64,000 bases of DNA from Dictyostelium discoideum (GCA_000004695.1 CM000150.2:4384001-4448000), one strand, 5' to 3'; counted from the stretch's first letter, positions 2,449 to 39,204 are shown. Numbers and translations are program-made. The notes: generated from the sequence alone by a model not told the origin.

Positions 2449-2501
<53 letters not shown>

Positions 2502-3585
2502 AAAAAATAAAAAAATAAATTAATTTATTTTTATTGTATAATTATTATTTTTTGTTTTTACAATTTTATTGATTTTATTAAATCTATAATATTTAATTAT
2601 ATATATTTATATATTTTTTTTTAAAAAATTGTTATTACTATGTGATTGTTATTTGTTAATTATTTCAAGAAAAAAAAAAAAATTAATTCTATTTATACAT
2701 ATTTTTTTTTTTTTTTTTCTTCTTATTTTTCTTGTTTTTTATTATTTATTTTTTATTATTTTTTTAACGTTTTGATTTATTTCTATTTATTTTATAATAT
2801 TGTTTTTTTAATTGTTTTTTTTATAATAAAAAATATTATTTTTTATTGGTTAATAATACTACTTGATGGGTGTGTATTCTATCCTCAATTAATAATAATT
2901 TTTTTAAAATTTCTATTTTGTTTTATTAATTTATTTGTGTATTTAGGTGTTTTAATTGTTATTCACCTATTGTGTGTGTATTTAAAATTTTTGTGTGTTA
3001 GTGGTGGTGTAAGTAGTGGTGTTGATTTAAAAGTGTGAAAATTTAAATTTTTCTGTTTGGGGGTAATAATTTATAAAAATAATATATAAATAATTAAAAA
3101 AAAAAAAAAAAAAAAAAAAACCTTTGATGTCAAATGTAATCTTCAATTTTAGATCCTATTGTAAATAAAATTTTTATTTAAAATTGTTTATATTTGTTAG
3201 TGTGTTTTTTTAAAATTAATATTTATTTTTAAAATTAATATTACAATCTGATTAAAAATTCTCACACACACTTAATAGATACTACCCTAAATGAAAAATT
3301 AGTGTGTGAATATTTGACAATAACCTATAAATAGAACCCATTAATAAACAAAGGGGCATTATTAACAATAAAAAAAATAACAATAGCTTTTTTTAAGAAA
3401 AATTAAAAAAATGAAAAAAAAAAAAAAAAAAAAAAATATAAAAGTTAAAATATGGTTTATTGTATATAAACATCAAATTTTTAGATGATGAAATTATTTG
3501 TGTATACTGACATCCAGAAAAAAATATCTCAAATAACCAATAATAATTTCACCCACTCACATTTATTTAAATTTATAAATTTTTT

Positions 3586-3632
<47 letters not shown>

Positions 3633-3798
3633 AATTAAATTTGGTTTGATGTTTTTCAAAAAAATTAATAATTTATTTTAAAAAATTACTCATTATTATG
3701 AGACAATAATATAAATTCTTTTAAAAAATAAAAAATAGATATATCAATTGATAAAAACTTACTCTATAAGATTAACACATAGTAAAACGTTAATTTCC

Positions 3799-3834
<36 letters not shown>

Positions 3835-4410
3835 GTGTGATATCTCGTCTTTCTTGATTTCAAGAAAATAGATCATTTGTAAATAAAATTTTATTTATTT
3901 TTTTTTTTTAATAATTTTTTTTATTTATTTATTTATTTAATTTTAATTTTAATAACAAATATTTGAAATAAATATTAATAATTACTATTTATTTATTAAA
4001 TTTATTTATTAATTTTATTAATTTATTAATAAATTTTATTTATTTATTAATTTTATAAATTTAATTATTAATTTATTTATTATTTATTTTATTTTATTTT
4101 ATTATATTTATTTTGTTTATTAATTTTATTTTATTTTATTTTATTTATTTATTAAATTTTATTTATTTTATTTTATTTTATTTATTTATTCCTCAAAGGT
4201 ACAATCATTTGTATATTTGTAAAAATTAGGTTTTCGCTATTATTGTTAATTTTTATTAATATGTAGATTAATTTATGAATTTTATTTTTGAGCTTATTGT
4301 TATTATTTTTTTTATTGTCAAAGAGTTGTTGTTAAAAATAATTATTTGAATTGTTATTGGTTTTTTTTTTTTTTTTTTACAAGATTTATTTAATACCAAA
4401 TAAATTATTA

Positions 4411-4543
4411 CAATGCTTTACGAAAATGAAAAAAAAAATTTATGATAATTGTGAAATAAAATAAAAAAAAACAAATACAAAATATATATTTAAAAATTAT
4501 CATAAATTTTTTTTTTTTCATTTTCGTAAAGCATTGTAATAAT
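4411..4543. repeat. near-perfect inverted repeat (hairpin): ~45-bp arms ATTACAATGCTTTACGAAAATGAAAAAAAAAATTTATGATAATT / reverse complement, ~38-nt spacer
   Basis: Arms at 4411-4456 and 4496-4543 are reverse complements of each other apart from an A/T homopolymer length difference. The repeat is intergenic between the GH5 and HGSNAT-like genes. Confidence 0.8.
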
Positions 4544-4571
4544 TAATCCTTTTTCCGATTTTAGGGATTTG

Positions 4572-4602
<31 letters not shown>

Positions 4603-4625
4603 TGTATCACTACTTGAAAAGGGTT

Positions 4626-4656
<31 letters not shown>

Positions 4657-5262
4657 AAAGGTCTTTGGGACCTCAATTATTAAAAAAAAAAACTTTTTTT
4701 TTTTTCAATTTCCCTAATAGAAATATAAATAGTGGTACATACATTAAACATAAAATTATTTTATGTGAATACAAAAATATTACTATGTGAAATACTATTT
4801 GTGGCTGTGTAACAAATAAATACACATTAAAAAAAAAAAAAAAAAACCAAAACTATATTTTTATCTACACACACAATATAAATAGATATATTCATATTTT
4901 TTTTTGTGCATGTATTATTCAATTAAAAAAAAAAAATTTTGCTTTCTTGACCTGTTTTAACTGTAAAGTAAAGTGCAGTGGCTTTAAAAAATGAAAAAAA
5001 ATTAAAAAATGAATAAAGATTTTTTTTTTCCCAATTGTTATCCGATTTTCCCAAAGATATTTATTTTTTTTTTTTATTTTATTTTATTTTAATTTTATTT
5101 TATACGATTTTTTTTTTAAAAAAAAAAAAAAAAAATTTTATTTTTTTTTTTATTTTTTTTTTTTGATCAATAGTCTAAACTAGTTAATTTTTATTTTTAT
5201 TTTATTTTTTTTTTTATTTATGCATAAACAAAAAAAAAAAAAAAAAAAAAAAGTTTTTACAT

Positions 5263-5483
5263 ATGATGGTGCCAAATTATAAAAATATACAAGATGAAGA
5301 GTCAAAACCATTGATTGAACATAGCAGTAGTACTCATATTAATCATGGAAAAGATACAAAAACTAAAATTATTGAATACCTTAAACCAGTTCAAAGAAGA
5401 ATGGGTAGTTTAGATGCTGTTAGAGGTCTAACTATTTTCGGAATGATGTAAATATTTACATTTTAAAAATTTTTAATTTATTT

Positions 5484-5544
<61 letters not shown>

Positions 5545-5779
5545 TTTATTAAAATTATAGTTTAGTTGATAATCAAGCTGGTAATGATGTTATTTGGCCA
5601 TTAAATGAAACTGAATGGAATGGTTTATCAACTGCTGATTTAATTTTCCCATCTTTTATTTTTATTAGTGGTTTTTCAATCGCTTTAGCTTTAAAGAATT
5701 CAAAAAATACAACATCAAGTAAGTAAAATAAATTTATTTTCTTTTATTTATTTATTTATTTTTTTATTAATTTATAAAT

Positions 5780-5842
<63 letters not shown>

Positions 5843-6889
5843 TAAATAGCATGGTATGGTATTATTAGAAGAACATTATTATTATTTTTTATTCAATGTT
5901 TTTTAAATTTAATGGGAGATCATTTTAATTTTACAACATTTAGAATTATGGGTGTTTTACAAAGAATTGCAATTTGTTATTTTTTTAGTTGTCTTTCTTT
6001 TCTTTGTTTTCCAATTTTCCTTCAAAGATTATTTTTATTAAGTGTAACTGTAACTTATATTTCAATTATGTATGCATTAAATGTACCAAAATGTGGTAGA
6101 GCAAATTTAACTCAAAATTGTAATGCTGGTGCTTATATTGATTCAAAAGTATTTGGTTTAAATATGTAAGTAGAAAAAAATAAAAATAAAAAAAATAAAA
6201 TATATGTGTGTATGTTTATTAATTATTATTTTTTTATTTTTTTTTTTTTTTTTTTTATTTTTAGAATGAAAGAAAGTAATTTAAATGGACCATATTATAA
6301 TGATCCAGAAGGTTTAATTTCAACAATGAGTTCATTTATTACAGCATGGATGGGATTAGAATTTGGTAGAATTTTTACAAGATTTTATAAAAAACATGAT
6401 TTTGGTAATACTGATATTATTGTAAGATGGATTTTATTGGTTATTTTATTTATGGTACCAGCGATTTCATTAGGTGCAACAGTTATGCCATTTAATAAAA
6501 AGATTTGGAGTTTTAGTTTTGCTTTATTTACAGTTGGTGCAAGTGGTTCATTAATTTTAATTGCATTTATTTTAATTGATGTTATTGATTGGGAATCATT
6601 AAAATGTGAAAAAGTTAGAAAAATAATCGATTTAATTATTAAACCAATGAAATGGATTGGTCAAAATCCAATCACAATCTATTCATTAATGGTTTTCATT
6701 GAAATCATTCTAATGTATTATATTAATGTTGGTTCAAATTCACTTTGGGTTCAAATTTATGAAAAAATGTATTTATCTTGGTTAAAAAATGGTTACTTAG
6801 CTTCAACTGTTTTTTCAATAGGTTGGTTAATATTTTTTATTTTAATTGCATATATTATGCAAAGAAATAAAATATTTATTAAACTTTAA
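5263..6889 (+). CDS. heparan-alpha-glucosaminide N-acetyltransferase-like multi-pass membrane protein (HGSNAT/DUF1624 family)
   Basis: Four exons: 5263..5447, 5561..5718, 5849..6165, 6265..6889. Conserved LDAVRGLTIFGMM...WNGLSTADLIFPSFIFISGFS block matches the HGSNAT N-terminal transmembrane region, followed by multiple hydrophobic helices. Exon phases are consistent across junctions. Confidence 0.85.
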
Positions 6890-7051
6890 AAAAATAATAA
6901 AAAAAAAAATAAAAAATAAATAAATTTAAAAAATTATTAAAAAATTTTGAAAATTAAAATATTTAATCATAAATAAATCTATATTTAGAAAATAAATTTT
7001 TATTAATTAAATATATTTTATTAATTTTTTTTTTTTTTTGGGAAAACACAC

Positions 7052-7096
<45 letters not shown>

Positions 7097-7157
7097 CATT
7101 TTATTTCAAAAAAAAAAAAAGATTCACATTAAAATAATAATTTAGAAAAAAAAAAAA

Positions 7158-7944
7158 ATGGTCAGACAATCAATTTCATTAAAAGCTGAATTAGAAGAAA
7201 TTCAAAATATTTTTCCAGCAACATATAAAATATTTTTTTTAAAGATTAAATGTTCAAATTGTGGTGAAATCCCAGATAAATGGATTGGTTTAGATAAATC
7301 AAATATTGAAGTCATTGGAAAATCAAATGTAAATTTAGCAAGTATGTTTGATATAAAAATAATTTATAAATGATTGAAATAAAAAAATTAAAAAATTAAA
7401 AAAATTATTAAGTAATTAAAATACTGATCAGTATTTTTATTCACTCATTTCAATTAATCATTTAATAAAATATATATATTAGCAAAATGTAAGGGTTGTA
7501 ATAGGGAAAATAGCATTGTAATTGAAGATACTGATTATTCATCAAGAACAATTGAATCAGAAAAAGATTTTGAAATTGCTAGATTTGATTGTAGAGGTGT
7601 TGAAATTGAAGAATTTGATCCAAGAGTAATAATACTATCAATATTAAATATTTAAATAATTTCAATTTTTAAAAACAATTACTAATAATAAATAATTAAA
7701 AAATAGGATAATTGGATTGTTGTCTCATCATCTGGTAAAGAATATAAAGATGTCGATTTAGAAGAGTAATTATAAATATTCAAATACAATATTTATATGT
7801 GATTGTTTTAACTAATAACCATTTTTTTTTTTTTTTTTTTATTATTATTATCTAAACAGAGGAGAATGGTCAGAATTTGAAGAAAGAACTTCAACTTCAT
7901 TAACTATTTTAAGTATTGAATCTTCTATTAAAAAAATCAAATAA
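7158..7944 (+). CDS. CXXC-motif zinc-binding protein (CZIB / UPF0587 / DUF866, human C1orf123 homolog)
   Basis: Four exons: 7158..7341, 7483..7625, 7707..7765, 7860..7944. Motifs KCSNCGE...KCKGCNRENS...FDCRG match the DUF866 family throughout. Confidence 0.8.
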
Positions 7945-19939: not shown

Positions 19940-20155
19940 AAATGTTGATAATAAGTTAATTTATGTCCATTATGTAAAAAAGAAATTTCATCAGTAATTA
20001 GAGTTTTTTAAATAAAAATACCAACGTTTCTTGGTTACAAACAACACTTGTAAAAAAAAAAAAAAAATAAAAAATAATAAATAAATAAATAGAAAAATAA
20101 AAATAAATTATTAGTTTAAATTTCATTTGGAAGTGGTTGTCAAAGAAAGAAGGTA
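19940..20155 (+). pseudogene. duplicated 3-prime fragment (last RING-finger codons plus 3-prime UTR) of the downstream TPR-Kelch-MYND-RING gene
   Basis: 19944-20155 aligns at ~85-90% identity with 24026-24215: GTTGATAAYAAGTTAATTT..ATGTCC.TTATGTAAAAAAGAAATTTCATCAG ... TTTTTTAAATAAAAATACCAACGTTT.TTGGTTACAA.CAACACTTGTAAAAA ... TTTAAATTTCATTTGGAAGTGGTTGT. It lies ~270 bp upstream of the ATG of that same gene. Confidence 0.75.
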
Positions 20156-20423: not shown

Positions 20424-24096
<3,673 letters not shown>

Positions 24097-24195
24097 ATAA
24101 AAATACCAACGTTTATTGGTTACAACCAACACTTGTAAAAAATAAAAAAATAAATAAATAAAATTATAGCCTTGTTTAAATTTCATTTGGAAGTG

Positions 24196-24244
<49 letters not shown>

Positions 24245-26083: not shown

Positions 26084-28006
26084 TCAATCTAATTCGTCTA
26101 CTTTGTTGTTTGAACTCTTTGGTGAATCATTTGACATACCACCTGGCATACCACCACCTTGTGGCATACCTCCTTCTTGATAGAGTTTACTCATGATTGG
26201 ATTGACAACTGCTTCTAAGGCTTTCATCTTATCTTCATATTCATCCTTTTCTGCGGTTTGATTTGATTCTAACCATTTGAGTACACTTTCAGTTTCAGAT
26301 TCAATAGTTGATTTATCTGAATCTGAAATTTTGGCTGCAACTTTTTCATCTTTAATTGAATTTTTAACAGTGAATGCATAATTTTCCAATTTATTCTTTG
26401 ATTCAACACGATCTTTTTGTTGTTCATCTTGTTGTTTGAATTTCTCTGCATCAGCAACCATTTTTTCAATTTCTTCTTTTGAAAGACGACCTTTATCATT
26501 GGTAATTGTAATCTTTTGTTTGTTACCAGTTGATTTATCTTCAGCTGATACATTTAAGATACCATTTGCATCAACATCAAATGTAACTTCAACTTGTGGT
26601 ACACCTCTTGGTGCTGGTGGAATACCAGAAAGTTCAAATTTACCCAATAAATTATTATCTTTGGTCATAGCACGTTCACCTTCATAAACTTGAATTAATA
26701 CACCTGGTTGATTATCAGAGTATGTAGAGAAGGTTTGAGTTTTCTTACATGGAATTGTTGTATTTCTTGGAATAAGAGTTGTCATAACACCACCAGCAGT
26801 TTCTAAACCCATTGATAATGGTGCAACATCTAACAATAAAAGATCAGCAACTTTAGCACCACCTTCATTTGAAAGAATTGCAGCTTGTACAGCGGCACCA
26901 TAAGCAACAGCTTCATCTGGATTAATTGATTTATTCAATTCTTTACCATTGAAAAATTCTTGTAATAATTGTTGTACCTTTGGAATACGAGTTGAACCAC
27001 CAACTAAAACAATTTCATGAATTGATTTCTTATCCAATTTACTATCTTTTAATACTTTTTCAACTGGATCTAAACAACCACGGAAAAGATCAGCACAGAG
27101 TTCTTCAAAACGTGCTCTAGTAATTGAAGTATAGAAATCAATACCTTCAAAGAGTGAATCAATTTCAATTGAAGCTTGAGCAGATGATGAAAGAGTTCTT
27201 TTGGCACGTTCACAAGCAGTTCTTAAACGACGAACAGCACGTTGATTACCCATAATATCTTTTTTATGTTTACGTTTAAATTCATCAACAAAGTGAGAAA
27301 CGAGACGATTATCAAAATCTTCACCACCTAAATGAGTATCACCAGCGGTGGCTTTAACTTCAAATACACCATCTTCAATGGTAAGGAGAGAAACATCAAA
27401 TGTACCACCACCTAAATCGAAAATTAAAATATTCTTTTCACCAGAACCTTTCTTTTCTAAACCATAAGCAATAGCAGCAGCAGTTGGTTCATTAATAATA
27501 CGTTGAACATTTAATTTTGAAATTGTACCAGCATCTTTGGTTGCTTGACGTTGACTATCATTGAAATAAGCTGGAACGGTAATTACAGCATTATTAATGG
27601 TTTTACCAAGATAAGCTTCAGCGGTTTCTTTCATTTTTAAGAGTACCATTGAAGAGATTTCTTCTGGTGAGAAAACTTTAGTTTCACCTTTGAATTCAAC
27701 TTGAATATGTGGCTTATCACCATCCTTTGGAATAACTTTGAATGGCCAATGTTTCATATCACTTTGAACTTCTTTGTCACTAAATTTACGACCAATTAAA
27801 CGTTTAGCATCAAATACTGTATTGGTTGGATTCATTGCAACTTGATTCTTTGCAGCATCACCAATTAAACGTTCTGTATCAGTAAATGCAACATAAGATG
27901 GAGTGGTTCTATTACCTTGATCATTTGCAATAATTTCAACACGATCATTTTGCCAAACACCAACACATGAATATGTTGTACCTAAATCAATACCAATTGA
28001 TGACAT
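26084..28006 (-). CDS. Hsp70 family chaperone, cytosolic type (640 aa, intronless)
   Basis: [39 protein letters not shown] and the rest of the canonical Hsp70 ATPase and substrate-binding domains. No signal peptide or organellar presequence. C-terminus GGMPGGM...NNKVDELD rather than EEVD. Confidence 0.95.
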
Positions 28007-32051: not shown

Positions 32052-32313
32052 CTTTTCTATTTTTTTCTTTGGTTTTGGTTGAATGTCACAAAAAAATCAA
32101 TGTCACACACAATTTCAAATAATTTCCGCATAATTTCATTTTTTTTTATTTATTTTTTATTTCATTTTATTTTTTTTTTTATGTAAGTTTCAAAAGATCT
32201 AAATATGTGTTGGGGAATCCTTTTTTTTTTTTTTTTTTTTTTTTTTGTTTATGGTAAAAACATCACAAATGTGGCTAATAGTGATTAAAATAAAATTTAT
32301 TATTTTTGTTAAT

Positions 32314-32897
32314 TTATTCTAATGAAGTTGCAACATAATCTGCTCTTAAATTATAAGCTCTTGCATTTCTCCATACATAGAAACGAGCTTTAAATCCTTT
32401 GGTTGTTACATTAATTGCTTGAACATCAACACGAGTTTGTTGGTAAACATTTGTACCAGTTGCATCAGCAGATGTTGTATCGATATGACCTAATGTAATT
32501 GCAATCAATGGAATTGATTTAAATTCGACTGGGAATAAAACATCAACAAGAATTTCACGAGCACCAGTATTTGTAGTACTATTTAAAACAGTATCAGCAC
32601 CTGGTGAAATATTTCTACCAACTTGAGTGAAACTGTGTTGTTCAATTTCAGCATATAATTCAAATCTTAATGAAATATGAGTATTCCAAGTCAATGGACA
32701 AATAGCAATTGAACGAGCTCTAATTGGAGTATCAAAGAAATGAGTGGTAACTGTATTACGATCACTATTAGCAGCAATAGAACTACCATTTCTATACTCT
32801 TTCCAATTAACACCATCAAGAGTATAACGAACTTTAAATGATGTTACCCATTGATCCACTATTATTTATTCAAATTATTAAATTAATAAATTTTATT

Positions 32898-32973
<76 letters not shown>

Positions 32974-33227
32974 AAAAACTTACAATCACCACGACCTTGA
33001 ATTGCTAAAGAAACATAGGTTTTTGGATTTTCAGAACCAGCCATAATGTATTGATTAGTATCGAGAATAGCAGCACACCAAGCTTCTGAACCACCTTGAG
33101 TATTTGGAGCACCATTTTTAAAATTTAAAACACTATTAAATTGAGTGTGAACACCATTAAAATTAGTTGAAGTTCTAAGATTAACAAGAGAGTTATAAAC
33201 TACTGGAACTAAATTTGCTGTTGACAT
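32314..33227 (-). CDS. discoidin-I-family lectin, copy 1 (N-terminal discoidin/F5-8 type C domain + C-terminal H-type lectin domain)
   Basis: Two exons: 33227..32984 and 32858..32314 (phase 1; junction reads RGD-L-DQW). Strong similarity to discoidin I throughout: [92 protein letters not shown]. The ORF-track M at 32859 is a GTG inside the exon, not a start codon. Confidence 0.85.
32899..32971. repeat. A73 homopolymer (T73 on the gene strand) making up most of discoidin copy-1 intron 1
   Basis: Direct reading. Intron 32983..32859 is GTAAGTTTTTAAT + T73 + a short AT-rich tail ending AATAG. Confidence 0.95.
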
Positions 33228-33240
33228 TTTTTTTTTTTTT

Positions 33241-33790
33241 TTTTAATAAAAGTTAATTTAAATACAATTTATTTAAATTTGATTATAAATGAAATTTATG
33301 TTTTTGTTGATATTAAAAATAAAAAAAAAATTTGTTCTTTTAATAGTTTTTTTTTTTTAATTATAAAATAATAAAATTAAAAAATTAATATAAAAAATAA
33401 ATAAATATATTATTATTTTAGAATCACAAGAATTTTTTTTTAGTTACTATAATTTTTTTTTTTTTTAAATTATCTTTAGATTTTTTTTTTTTTTGGAAAG
33501 ACAAGGAGATGGGAAAAAATAAAAAAATTTGGTTAACACAAAGAAAATGACCGACATTTTTAAATGAAGACATTTTTTTGAGATTTTATTTTTAAAAAAA
33601 AAAAAAAAAAAAAATATCTTTTCTATTTTCTCAAATGATTTTTTGGGCTTTTTTTTTTGACTTTTTAAGATTTTTTGATTAATAGTTTATAGTAGAAAAA
33701 ATAAAATAAAAAATAAAATAAAAAATAAAAAAAAAATAAAATAAAAAATAAAAAAATCCCAAGATTTTGAAATAAAATAGTTTTTTTTTT
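33241..33790 (-). promoter_or_regulatory. conserved upstream/promoter region of discoidin copy 1 (duplicated at 35470-36060)
   Basis: Long blocks identical between the two copies directly 5-prime of both discoidin start codons. Contains the 34-bp segment 33535-33568 that is inverted in copy 2. Confidence 0.4.
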
Positions 33791-33975
33791 TTATTTTTAT
33801 AATATTAAAATAAGTTTTTATAATTTTAATAACATTATCCAATTGAAATAATTAAATCTTAGTTAATAATTCTTCAAAATAAAATTGAATTTTTTGAATG
33901 ATATTATTGAATTCAATAAAAAAAATATTTTATTTGTGATAATACTTAATTAATTGAAATTAAAATGAATTTAAA
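33790..33975 (-). pseudogene. decayed fragment of the 3-prime end of the DUF4209-like gene (homolog of 36069-36408), with the internal (ATT)n tract collapsed
   Basis: The reverse complement reads [40 protein letters not shown], compared with [35 protein letters not shown] in the intact gene. The nucleotide alignment 33781-33966 vs 36060-36408 is clear. Confidence 0.6.
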
Positions 33976-34260: not shown

Positions 34261-34563
34261 AAAAAAAAAAAAAACAATCATTAAGTTTTTAAAATAAAAT
34301 AAATAAAAAAATAACTTTTTTGAGTATAAAAAAAAAAAAAAAAAAAAAAAAGAACCTTTCTATTTTTTTTTTCTATTGTTCAATTTAATAAAAGAAATCA
34401 ATTATTCCCATTTTTTTTTATTTTTTTTAATAGAAATTTCAAAAGATATAAATTAAAAAAAAAACTAAATAAATAAGTGAAAATTTGTTTTTTTTTTTTG
34501 TTTTCTGGTAAAAACATAACACATGTGGTAATTAAAATAAAATAAAATTTATTTTTTTTTAAT

Positions 34564-35147
34564 TTATTCTAATGAAGTTGCAACATAATCTGCTCTTAAA
34601 TTATAAGCTCTTGCATTTCTCCATACATAGAAACGAGCTTTGAATCCTTTAGTTGTTACATTAATTGCTTGAACATCGACACGAGTTTGTTGGTAAACAT
34701 TTGTACCAGTTGCATCAGCAGATGTTGTATCGATATGACCTAATGTAATTGCAATCAATGGAATTGATTTAAATTCGACTGGGAATAAAACATCAACAAG
34801 AATTTCACGGGCACCAGTATTTGTAGTACTATTTAAAACAGTATCAGCACCTGGTGAAATATTTCTACCAACTTGAGTGAAACTGTGTTGTTCAATTTCA
34901 GCATATAATTCAAATCTTAATGAAATATGAGTATTCCAAGTCAATGGACAAATTGCAATTGAACGAGCTCTAATTGGAGTATCAAAGAAATGAGTGGTAA
35001 CTGTATTACGATCACTATTAGCAGCAATAGAACTACCATTTCTATACTCTTTCCAATTAACACCATCAAGAGTATAACGAACTTTAAATGATGTTACCCA
35101 TTGATCCACTATTATGTATTTAAATTATTAAATTAATAAATTTTAAT

Positions 35148-35215
<68 letters not shown>

Positions 35216-35469
35216 AAATACTTACAATCACCACGACCTTGAATTGCTAAAGAAACATAGGTTTTTGGATTTTCAGAACCAGCCATAATGTATTGATTAG
35301 TATCGAGAATAGCAGCACACCAAGCTTTTGAACCACCTTGAGTATTTGGAGCACCATTTTTAAAATTTAAAACACTATTAAATTGAGTGTGAACACCATT
35401 AAAATTAGTTGAAGTTTTAAGATTAACAAGAGAGTTATAAACTACTGGAACTAAATTTGCTGTTGACAT
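34564..35469 (-). CDS. discoidin-I-family lectin, copy 2
   Basis: Two exons: 35469..35226 and 35108..34564. Exon 2 protein is identical to copy 1. Exon 1 differs at two residues (R18K, E48K). Intron 1 contains an A65/T65 homopolymer (35149-35213). Confidence 0.85.
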
Positions 35470-36060
35470 TTTTTTTTTTTTTTTTTAATAAAAGTTAATT
35501 TAATACAATGTTTTTAAATTTGATTATAAATGAAATTTATGTTTTGTTGATATTAAATAAAAAAAAAATTTCCTCTTTTTATAGTTTTTTTTTATTATTA
35601 AAATAATAAAAAATAAAAAATTAAAATAAAAATAAATAATTATTTCAGAATCTTGGGAATTTTTAGATTTTAGTTATAATAAATTTTTTTTTTTTTTTTT
35701 TAAATATCTTTGTAATAATTTTTTTTGGAAAGATAAGAAAATGGGAAAATATAAAAAAATTTAGTTCATTTAAAAATGTCGGTCATTTCTTTGTGTTATG
35801 ACATTTTTTTGAGATTTTATTTTTTCAAAAAAAACAAAAAAAAAAAAAAAAAATATCTTTTCTATTTTTGCAAATGATTTTTTTTTTTTTTTTTTTGGGG
35901 TGAAGGGGTAGGCTTTTTTTTGCATTTTAAGATTTTTTGGTCAAAAGTTTATAGTAAAAAAAATTAAATAAAAAATAAAAAAAAAAAAAAAAAATAATAA
36001 TATTAACTAAAAAAAAAAAAATTTCCTAAGATTTTGAAATAAAATAATTATCTTTTTTTT
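35470..36060 (-). promoter_or_regulatory. conserved upstream/promoter region of discoidin copy 2
   Basis: Alignable to 33241-33790. Carries a G-rich insertion GGGGTGAAGGGGTAGG (35893-35915) that copy 1 lacks, and the inverted 34-bp segment (35766-35798). Confidence 0.4.
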
Positions 36061-36068
36061 TTTTTTCC

Positions 36069-39204
<3,136 letters not shown>

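Follow-up and report, generated by a model that had tools for sequence, protein, structure and literature searches.

The palindrome described here, a long and nearly perfect inverted repeat in the AT-rich Dictyostelium discoideum genome, raises the question of whether such a structure is a small-RNA gene, the remnant of a mobile element, a by-product of a regulatory site or the outcome of a mutational process. The window, i.e., the whole stretch of 64,000 nucleotides that was analysed, was assigned by exact protein look-ups to chromosome 1 of D. discoideum AX4, and it has a GC content of ~18% with long homopolymer runs. Exact protein matches place Hsc70 (P36415) at 26084-28006, the spliced cellulase gene DDB_G0270190 (XP_646607.1) at 621-2448 on the minus strand, and the DUF866 protein XP_646609.1 at 7158-7944. 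A four-exon model of 427 aa (5263-5447, 5561-5718, 5850-6165, 6265-6889) represents an HGSNAT-like gene. No AX4 protein on record matches this model, orthologues in other genomes are annotated with 425-427 aa, and the AX4 annotation may differ. The palindrome lies in the 2.8-kb divergent spacer between the start of the cellulase gene (2448) and the start of the HGSNAT-like gene (5263), 715 nt upstream of the latter, which agrees with the intergenic position given in a first-pass annotation of this DNA. Neither tRNA genes nor Rfam families were found; the whole window was compared with Rfam using the gathering score, and 2449-5262 with the looser limit of E <= 5. The window contains several further repeats: in a tandem duplication (32231-33899 and 34484-36182, 1.7 kb with 89.7% identity) there are two discoidin-domain ORFs of 181 aa, identical to each other, on the minus strand (32314-32859 and 34564-35109), whose best matches are discoidin-1A (E = 3e-57) and discoidin-2 (E = 1.5e-41) and which are clearly diverged paralogues of both. 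An inverted duplicate of 258 bp with 90.7% identity (23536-23784 and 36186-36443, at a distance of 12.4 kb) falls within long ORFs of opposite strands that share a 16-residue peptide, and a direct repeat of 139 bp with 90% identity (19943-20078 and 24027-24164) has a 35-bp extra piece at 20114-20148 and 24174-24208.

The left arm of the palindrome (4403-4450, 48 nt) is the reverse complement of the right arm (4495-4544, 50 nt) except for the length of one A/T run, and the arms enclose an A-rich loop of 44 nt (4451-4494) that is homologous to the start of the longer spacer of the other genomes compared below; none of these features has an assigned strand. The sole asymmetry is the A10 run at 4429-4438, likewise unstranded, whose partner is the T12 run at 4507-4518, giving a 2-nt bulge, and there is not a single substitution between the arms. 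Beyond an A/A mismatch two extra pairs can be added, so that the repeat then spans 4400 to 4547. The near-perfect hairpin of the first-pass annotation is therefore real, as is its remark that only the length of the A/T run distinguishes the arms. Its long perfect stem likewise stands, measured as 48 bp with a loop of 44 nt instead of 45 bp and ~38 nt; the two arm sequences that it quoted occur once each, at 4407-4450 and 4495-4543, so that its coordinates of 4411-4456 and 4496-4543 are off by 4-6 nt on the left and by 1 nt on the right. RNA folding, proposed there as a check, gives -54.1 kcal/mol for the plus strand (z = -16.3) and -55.4 kcal/mol for the minus strand (z = -12.6), and the palindrome folded as DNA gives -44.4 kcal/mol (z = -12.6); in all three cases none of 200 shuffled sequences folded as well. 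The 23-mer of the arm has only two sites in the 64-kb window at <=3 mismatches, with a chance expectation of 0. In a census of all inverted repeats within 600 nt, no other long repeat of the 64 kb consists of complex sequence, all remaining long ones being an A/T run against a T/A run; the first-pass annotation had described the palindrome as far more structured than the simple-sequence DNA around it.

On both sides the hairpin is accompanied by homopolymer runs. A T18 run followed by ACAAGATT (4361-4386, plus strand) lies 24 nt upstream of the stem in a promoter/TSS-like arrangement, and an unstranded A28 run (4572-4599), which is equivalent to an upstream T28 on the minus strand, lies 27 nt downstream. 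Of the non-coding positions, only 1.5% have both a T-run of >=15 no more than 60 nt to the left and an A-run of >=15 no more than 60 nt to the right. The stretches of 24-27 nt between the stem and the T18 and A28 runs show no complementarity to each other (P = 0.81), and therefore the ends of the palindrome are sharp. For the same reason we rejected the idea that T18 and A28 are decayed outer parts of a larger palindrome. The AT skew of the plus strand changes from T-rich (3800-4400) to A-rich (4400-4900), with the switch exactly at the hairpin, which is the pattern expected at a transcription start in the D. discoideum genome. Starts of both pri-miRNAs and mRNAs of D. discoideum come after T-runs (PMC6161686).

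For comparison, seven syntenic 20-kb loci around the DUF866 gene were collected via the cluster members of this protein, comprising two D. discoideum loci (ACTFIW, L013; ACTFIR, L014), two of D. cf. discoideum (ACTFIY, L012; ACTFIZ, L015), two assemblies of D. citrinum (L016 and L017) and D. firmibasis (L018). Together with AX4, the first four of these loci represent the D. discoideum complex, i.e., five genomes. In a distance tree built on 2.6 kb of coding exon sequence the order is (D. firmibasis, (D. citrinum, (ACTFIZ, (ACTFIY, (AX4, (ACTFIW, ACTFIR)))))), and the spacer is collinear across all seven related loci. The T-run with ACAAGATT is retained in every genome of the complex, with ACAAAATT in ACTFIZ, and both parts are found in D. 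citrinum as well, where the T-run is shortened to T7. In ACTFIY the spacer has 5.0 kb compared to 2.8 kb (~5100-7600 of its locus); it contains an additional annotated gene for a BP74_N protein of 135 aa (5771-6661, minus strand), and the homologue of AX4 4741-4960 is doubled there (5115-5330 and 7475-7594). Several blocks of the spacer are exactly conserved. A 38-nt block at 3324-3362, CTATAAATAGAACCCATTAATAAACAAAGGGGCATTAT, with a TATA-like motif inside, is identical in D. firmibasis, and a block of 37-38 nt at 2860-2896, beginning with TACTTGATGGGTGTGTATTCTATCC and containing the G-box-like GGGTGTGT, is identical in D. citrinum. Two more blocks of 21-30 nt lie at 3267-3296 and 3125-3146. 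These exact blocks are probably promoter elements or belong to an unannotated small gene or ncRNA. The motif TATAAATAG has four plus-strand copies in the 64 kb, three of which are in the 2.8-kb spacer (3326, 4724, and 4877).

The outer part of the left arm belongs to the conserved sequences of this spacer. Its core, TTATTACAATGCTTTACGAAAAT (4405-4427, plus strand, 23 nt), marks the ancestral site: AX4 4396-4427 is a 32-nt exact match to D. citrinum (L017), and the 23-nt core is exact in D. firmibasis at 7336-7358 of its locus, here in inverted orientation. Among the complex exact matches of AX4 with either outgroup in the 2.8-kb spacer, the core ranks third in length. Each outgroup contains one copy only, in plus orientation in D. 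citrinum and inverted in D. firmibasis. When the 45 nt at 7321-7365 of the D. firmibasis locus are re-inverted, the alignment score to D. citrinum rises from 73 to 113 with both flanks collinear. Judged from this alignment, the D. firmibasis core lies within a 45-nt inversion in place. It is not a retained "right arm", as both flanks are collinear with the left-arm site of D. citrinum. The inverted segment is bounded by short inverted repeats of its own, AAATAATTTAT...ATAAATTAT. The conservation of the core exceeds the background in species that have no hairpin, with modest statistical weight. As these outgroups conserve the core without a hairpin, the constraint on it is not base pairing, and the core is constrained for some other reason. 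This bears on the cruciform-forming regulatory element that the first-pass annotation had also proposed.

The second copy of the core, the inverted duplicate at 4520-4542 on the minus strand, is restricted to the D. discoideum complex. It is present in AX4 and in the ACTFIW, ACTFIR, ACTFIY, and ACTFIZ genomes, and absent at <=4 errors from D. firmibasis and both D. citrinum assemblies, where the best candidates, with 5-6 errors, resemble AT-rich noise. Throughout the complex, in each of its five genomes, the two inverted arms are present with an outer stem of 27-30 bp and a (TTA)n-like AT-rich spacer of 100-190 nt. As both arms occur in all genomes of the complex and only one in the outgroups, the second copy arose, by parsimony, on the stem branch of the complex. 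The older hairpins with their long spacers still fold, with -36 to -45 kcal/mol (z = -3.8 to -8.2). The arms differ from each other at no position in AX4, and at 1, 2, 2, and 3-4 positions in the other four genomes. Pairs were counted on a gap-free construct of arm, linker, and arm because MAFFT misplaced the right arm of ACTFIZ. Among the 34 pairs of the outer stem in the five genomes, 25 are invariant, eight vary solely by broken pairs, and one is a trivial A/T swap. No compensatory change was found in the stem among these genomes, and the covariation score was reached by 333 of 500 shuffles. Variable columns are less frequent in the outer arms (9/59) than in the flanks and loop (22/88), which could mean a weak constraint on the stem and not on the core alone. 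However, the core is equally conserved where no hairpin exists, and therefore the low variability of the outer arms is no argument for pairing. Thus, selection on the pairing is not demonstrable.

The inner half of the stem is younger than the outer half and is present in AX4 alone, the perfect state being seen in one reference assembly. The segment AATTATCATAAA-T12-C at 4495-4519 (no strand assigned) is the reverse complement of 4426-4450 apart from two extra T in the homopolymer, and replaces 52-65 nt of the (TTA)n-like spacer of the sister strains. At the replaced site the two ACTFIW/ACTFIR strains and the two D. cf. discoideum genomes carry a (TTA)n-like spacer of 52-190 nt. Following AAAAATTAT, AX4 reads CATAAA-T12-C and runs directly into the outer arm, where ACTFIR and ACTFIW have TATTATTATTTATTT...AACTATTTATTTTC. 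The junction of the perfect form is AATTATCATAAATTTTTT, its ancestral counterpart AATTATTATTATTATTTATTT. A linear alignment of AX4 with ACTFIR or ACTFIW needs three substitutions and two deletions (26-39 nt in total); the changes of the inner stem are clustered within ~25 nt, and each of them raises the complementarity. The replaced tract ends at complementarity that existed before, namely the outer stem of 27-30 bp and AATTAT/ATAATT, both of which are found in the sister strains. Hence all four features of a template-switch product are found here: a reverse-complement source, a different ancestral state, a cluster of changes that one event can produce, and complementarity at the switch points. 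The AX4 inner stem bears the classical signature of quasi-palindrome correction by template switching. In the left inner arm AX4 also has a deletion of 6-7 nt compared to the sister strains, and therefore at least one further small event, or a more complex single event, is needed. A single recent inverted duplication of the whole 48-bp arm was rejected since the outer stem is old and the inner half alone is new.

We consider it probable that templated mutations, acting step by step on a small conserved non-coding element, produced the hairpin. The mechanism would be template switching during replication or, as an equivalent, repair synthesis with the other arm as template. The process would have started from the single-copy core of ~23-32 nt as it stands in D. 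citrinum and, within the 45-nt in-place inversion, in D. firmibasis. The ancestor of the complex would have gained a reverse-complement copy of ~25 nt of the core 100-190 nt downstream; the distribution among the genomes is that described above, and the templated origin of the copy is proposed. The product would have been an imperfect repeat capable of forming a hairpin, whose arms have drifted since then without compensation. Then, in the lineage leading to AX4 and in no other, one outer arm may have primed synthesis that copied the inner part of the other arm and returned at the AATTAT/ATAATT complementarity that was already there. Such an event would have removed the (TTA)n-like spacer and at once made the 48-bp perfect stem out of the quasi-palindrome, and the leftover difference between A10 and T12 can be assumed to reflect homopolymer slippage. 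We infer this mechanism from the end states, in an AT-rich spacer that aligns poorly. The suggestion in the first-pass annotation of a replication or recombination hotspot fits in so far as it concerns the origin of the hairpin, since inversion, inverted duplication, and the perfecting in AX4 are outcomes of templated mutation. It is most likely that the perfect stem is a recent and neutral or at most proto-functional structure, i.e., at most a proto-hairpin-RNA locus.

Template switching is documented for perfect stems of 30-55 bp made in one step, for in-place inversions of loops, and for quasi-palindrome correction, and in mammalian genomes it is a source of perfect stems and of inverted hairpin loops (PMC10710096). 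The AX4 locus resembles these hairpins, which include de novo miRNA genes (Monttinen, Frilander & Loytynoja 2023, PMC10710096), as well as classical quasi-palindrome correction. The derived segment is the exact reverse complement of adjacent sequence, one event covers the substitutions together with the deletions, the stem falls into the class of 30-55 bp, and the junctions lie at pre-existing complementarity. Furthermore, a loop or core inverted in place is found at the same locus in another lineage, D. firmibasis. Unlike those cases, the organism is an amoebozoan and not a mammal, the hairpin locus is known here from its sequence alone, and the duplicated unit is a conserved non-coding block.

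Other explanations for the palindrome start from its architecture. Inverted ends of 48 bp with a short AT-rich interior and 142 nt overall would suit a MITE or the remnant of transposon terminal inverted repeats, the latter being a suggestion of the first-pass annotation, and element borders at 4404 and 4543 would give a TAA/TAA flank. However, the orthologous sites of D. citrinum and D. firmibasis are not empty but occupied by one arm and loop-homologous DNA, so that the palindrome was not inserted as a unit, which contradicts that suggestion. In addition, the inner half of the repeat stems from a replacement found in AX4 only, the sequence is single-copy in the window of 64 kb and in the related loci (8 x 20 kb), and the TAA "duplication" is the palindrome read one base further in, within AT-rich DNA. 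The locus has terminal inverted symmetry and hairpin potential in common with MITEs and with the miRNA loci of D. discoideum derived from thug-S, whose copies yield small RNAs (PMC6161686); unlike them it is single-copy in the searched loci, has neither an empty site nor a convincing target-site duplication, and was formed stepwise in situ. A transposon origin is thus extremely improbable. The restriction of the perfect state to one assembly, with the four closest genomes having no inner stem, would also be expected if the inner stem were an artefact of the AX4 reference, produced, for example, by correction or deletion during cloning in Escherichia coli or by mis-assembly. AT-rich Dictyostelium inserts are unstable in E. 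coli, and template-switch correction of quasi-palindromes is well documented in this host. Against this, the change is a specific templated replacement within collinear sequence and not a collapse at a contig end, and the AX4 reference is presumably the consensus of many independent clones. We regard an artefact as very unlikely. A third possibility is a functional hairpin-RNA gene or young miRNA gene of the D. discoideum complex, with a Pol II transcript that would start after the T18 run (or after T28 on the other strand) and fold into the stem, from which DrnB/RbdB or DrnA would dice one or two adjacent 21-nt duplexes. If Pol II reads through the locus, a 48-bp AU-rich duplex would form that Dicer-like enzymes would be able to cut, and expressed hairpin RNA is diced in D. 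discoideum (PMC3661229). The criteria for Dictyostelium miRNAs (Liao 2018, Edelbroek 2024) comprise an MFE below -0.2 kcal/mol/nt and >=60% pairing of the duplex, and furthermore >=10 reads per arm, a 2-nt 3' overhang, precise 5' ends, and DrnB dependence. With regard to energy and pairing, the hairpin reaches -0.37 kcal/mol/nt at 37 C (-0.48 at 22 C) with a fully paired stem, a full pairing that is flagged as "0 unpaired bases" under MirGeneDB-style rules. The hairpin potential is kept in all five genomes of the complex, mir-1180 and mir-7102 are precedents for two adjacent duplexes per stem, and long mismatch-free hairpins of dictyostelids have been described as young miRNAs (Edelbroek et al. 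2024, PMC11014262). The inner half, on the other hand, would yield near-homopolymeric small RNAs with 1-3 G/C per 21-mer. A structure maintained in evolution, which is also expected of a miRNA, is not observed, as eight of the nine variable pairs are changed by breakage only; all arm substitutions in the five genomes break pairs, apart from the one A/T swap in an A/T run, and the second arm is missing from the outgroups. Thus the miRNA-like precursor considered in the first-pass annotation is structurally possible, and neither an Rfam match, a match in the published tables searched nor a compensatory change accompanies it.

The comparison with known miRNA loci leads to a similar result. The T18 and A28 runs and the switch in skew resemble the ddi-mir-1177 locus, and by this analogy transcription and processing are possible. 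In pri-mir-1177 the start site is preceded by a T26 run, and an A-run separates the hairpin from the downstream gene (PMC6161686); the order of T-run, hairpin, A-run, and downstream gene is parallel here. Like ddi-mir-1177 (Liao et al. 2018, PMC6161686), the AX4 hairpin is intergenic, lies past a long T-run, is followed by an A-run and a protein-coding gene on the same strand, and is found in sister species as well. However, mir-1177-5p is perfectly conserved across group-4 species and the changes in its 3p arm preserve the structure, whereas here a second arm is absent from the outgroups and the changes in the arms disrupt pairs. With dfi-mir-1190 and also ppo-mir-1226, young miRNAs of a dictyostelid and a myxomycete (Edelbroek et al. 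2024, PMC11014262) the hairpin shares a long mismatch-free stem, an intergenic position, and the restriction to one lineage. Those two are represented by tens of thousands of small-RNA reads, whereas the AX4 hairpin is in none of the published lists searched, and its stem is far more AU-rich (-0.37 kcal/mol/nt compared to -0.56 for dfi-mir-1190 and -0.63 for ppo-mir-1226). Neither Liao 2018 nor Edelbroek 2024 has an 8-mer or 12-mer of the arms in the supplementary material on miRNAs, Edelbroek Table S3 contains ten D. discoideum candidates of which none matches in energy, Rfam gives no match even at E <= 5, and none of ten published ddi-miRNA sequences matches the window at <=3 mismatches. A full-text literature search with the arm 12-mers returned unrelated primers only, and in metagenome, viral, and prokaryote collections the arm 20-mer had chance matches in bacterial coding sequence only, which extend by <=6 nt and include the partner arm in no case. 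All in all we think it unlikely that the hairpin is such a gene. A narrower form of the proposal, namely that the AX4 template switch itself made a newborn small-RNA gene, whose transcript would start at the conserved T-run and be cut by Dicer-like enzymes into 21-nt RNAs, and that the mismatched stems with large loops of the wild sister strains yield few small RNAs or none, appears doubtful to us; if true, this would be a de novo hairpin-RNA/miRNA locus observed in Amoebozoa at its birth, while the ancestral allele still segregates. As to the core, it might be a protein-binding cis-regulatory site that works in either orientation, so that two inverted copies stand in a shared promoter region and the hairpin potential is incidental. 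In favour of this, the single-copy core is exact over 32 nt in D. citrinum and 23 nt in D. firmibasis, has outlasted an in-place inversion as orientation-independent sites typically do, and ranks with conserved blocks of the promoter region such as the G-box-like one at 2860-2896 and the TATA-containing one at 3324-3362, and the outer arms are the locally least variable segment. On the other side, by our own estimate a 23-nt exact run is expected ~0.8 times by chance at ~75% identity over 2.4 kb, so that the conservation in D. firmibasis alone is weak evidence. Moreover, the core matched no known factor or motif, was seen nowhere else in the window or the fetched loci, and carries 1-3 changes in single strains. 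An orientation-independent cis-regulatory site is the most plausible and most economical reading of the constraint on the core, which we regard as a candidate site; as an explanation of the locus we put it forward tentatively.

Stepwise templated mutation, the history favoured here, makes this locus a further case of a type already known, the hairpin that arises by template switching, and as far as the genome comparison can tell it is an unusually well resolved one because all intermediate states survive in related genomes. It also shows that caution is needed, as a striking perfect palindrome can be a recent mutational product without evidence of function; the conserved thing at this locus is the short core and not the pairing. 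Template switching has been proposed as a one-step source of the perfect stems that feed the origin of miRNA genes, and the cases documented in PMC10710096 are mammalian, from primates and rodents. In social amoebae the series from a single conserved element to an imperfect inverted duplicate and on to a perfected 48-bp stem is present entirely in living genomes, with its last stage specific to AX4, the laboratory reference lineage. Therefore, a comparison of AX4 with wild D. discoideum isolates would make it testable whether a newly perfected hairpin at once feeds the RNAi machinery.
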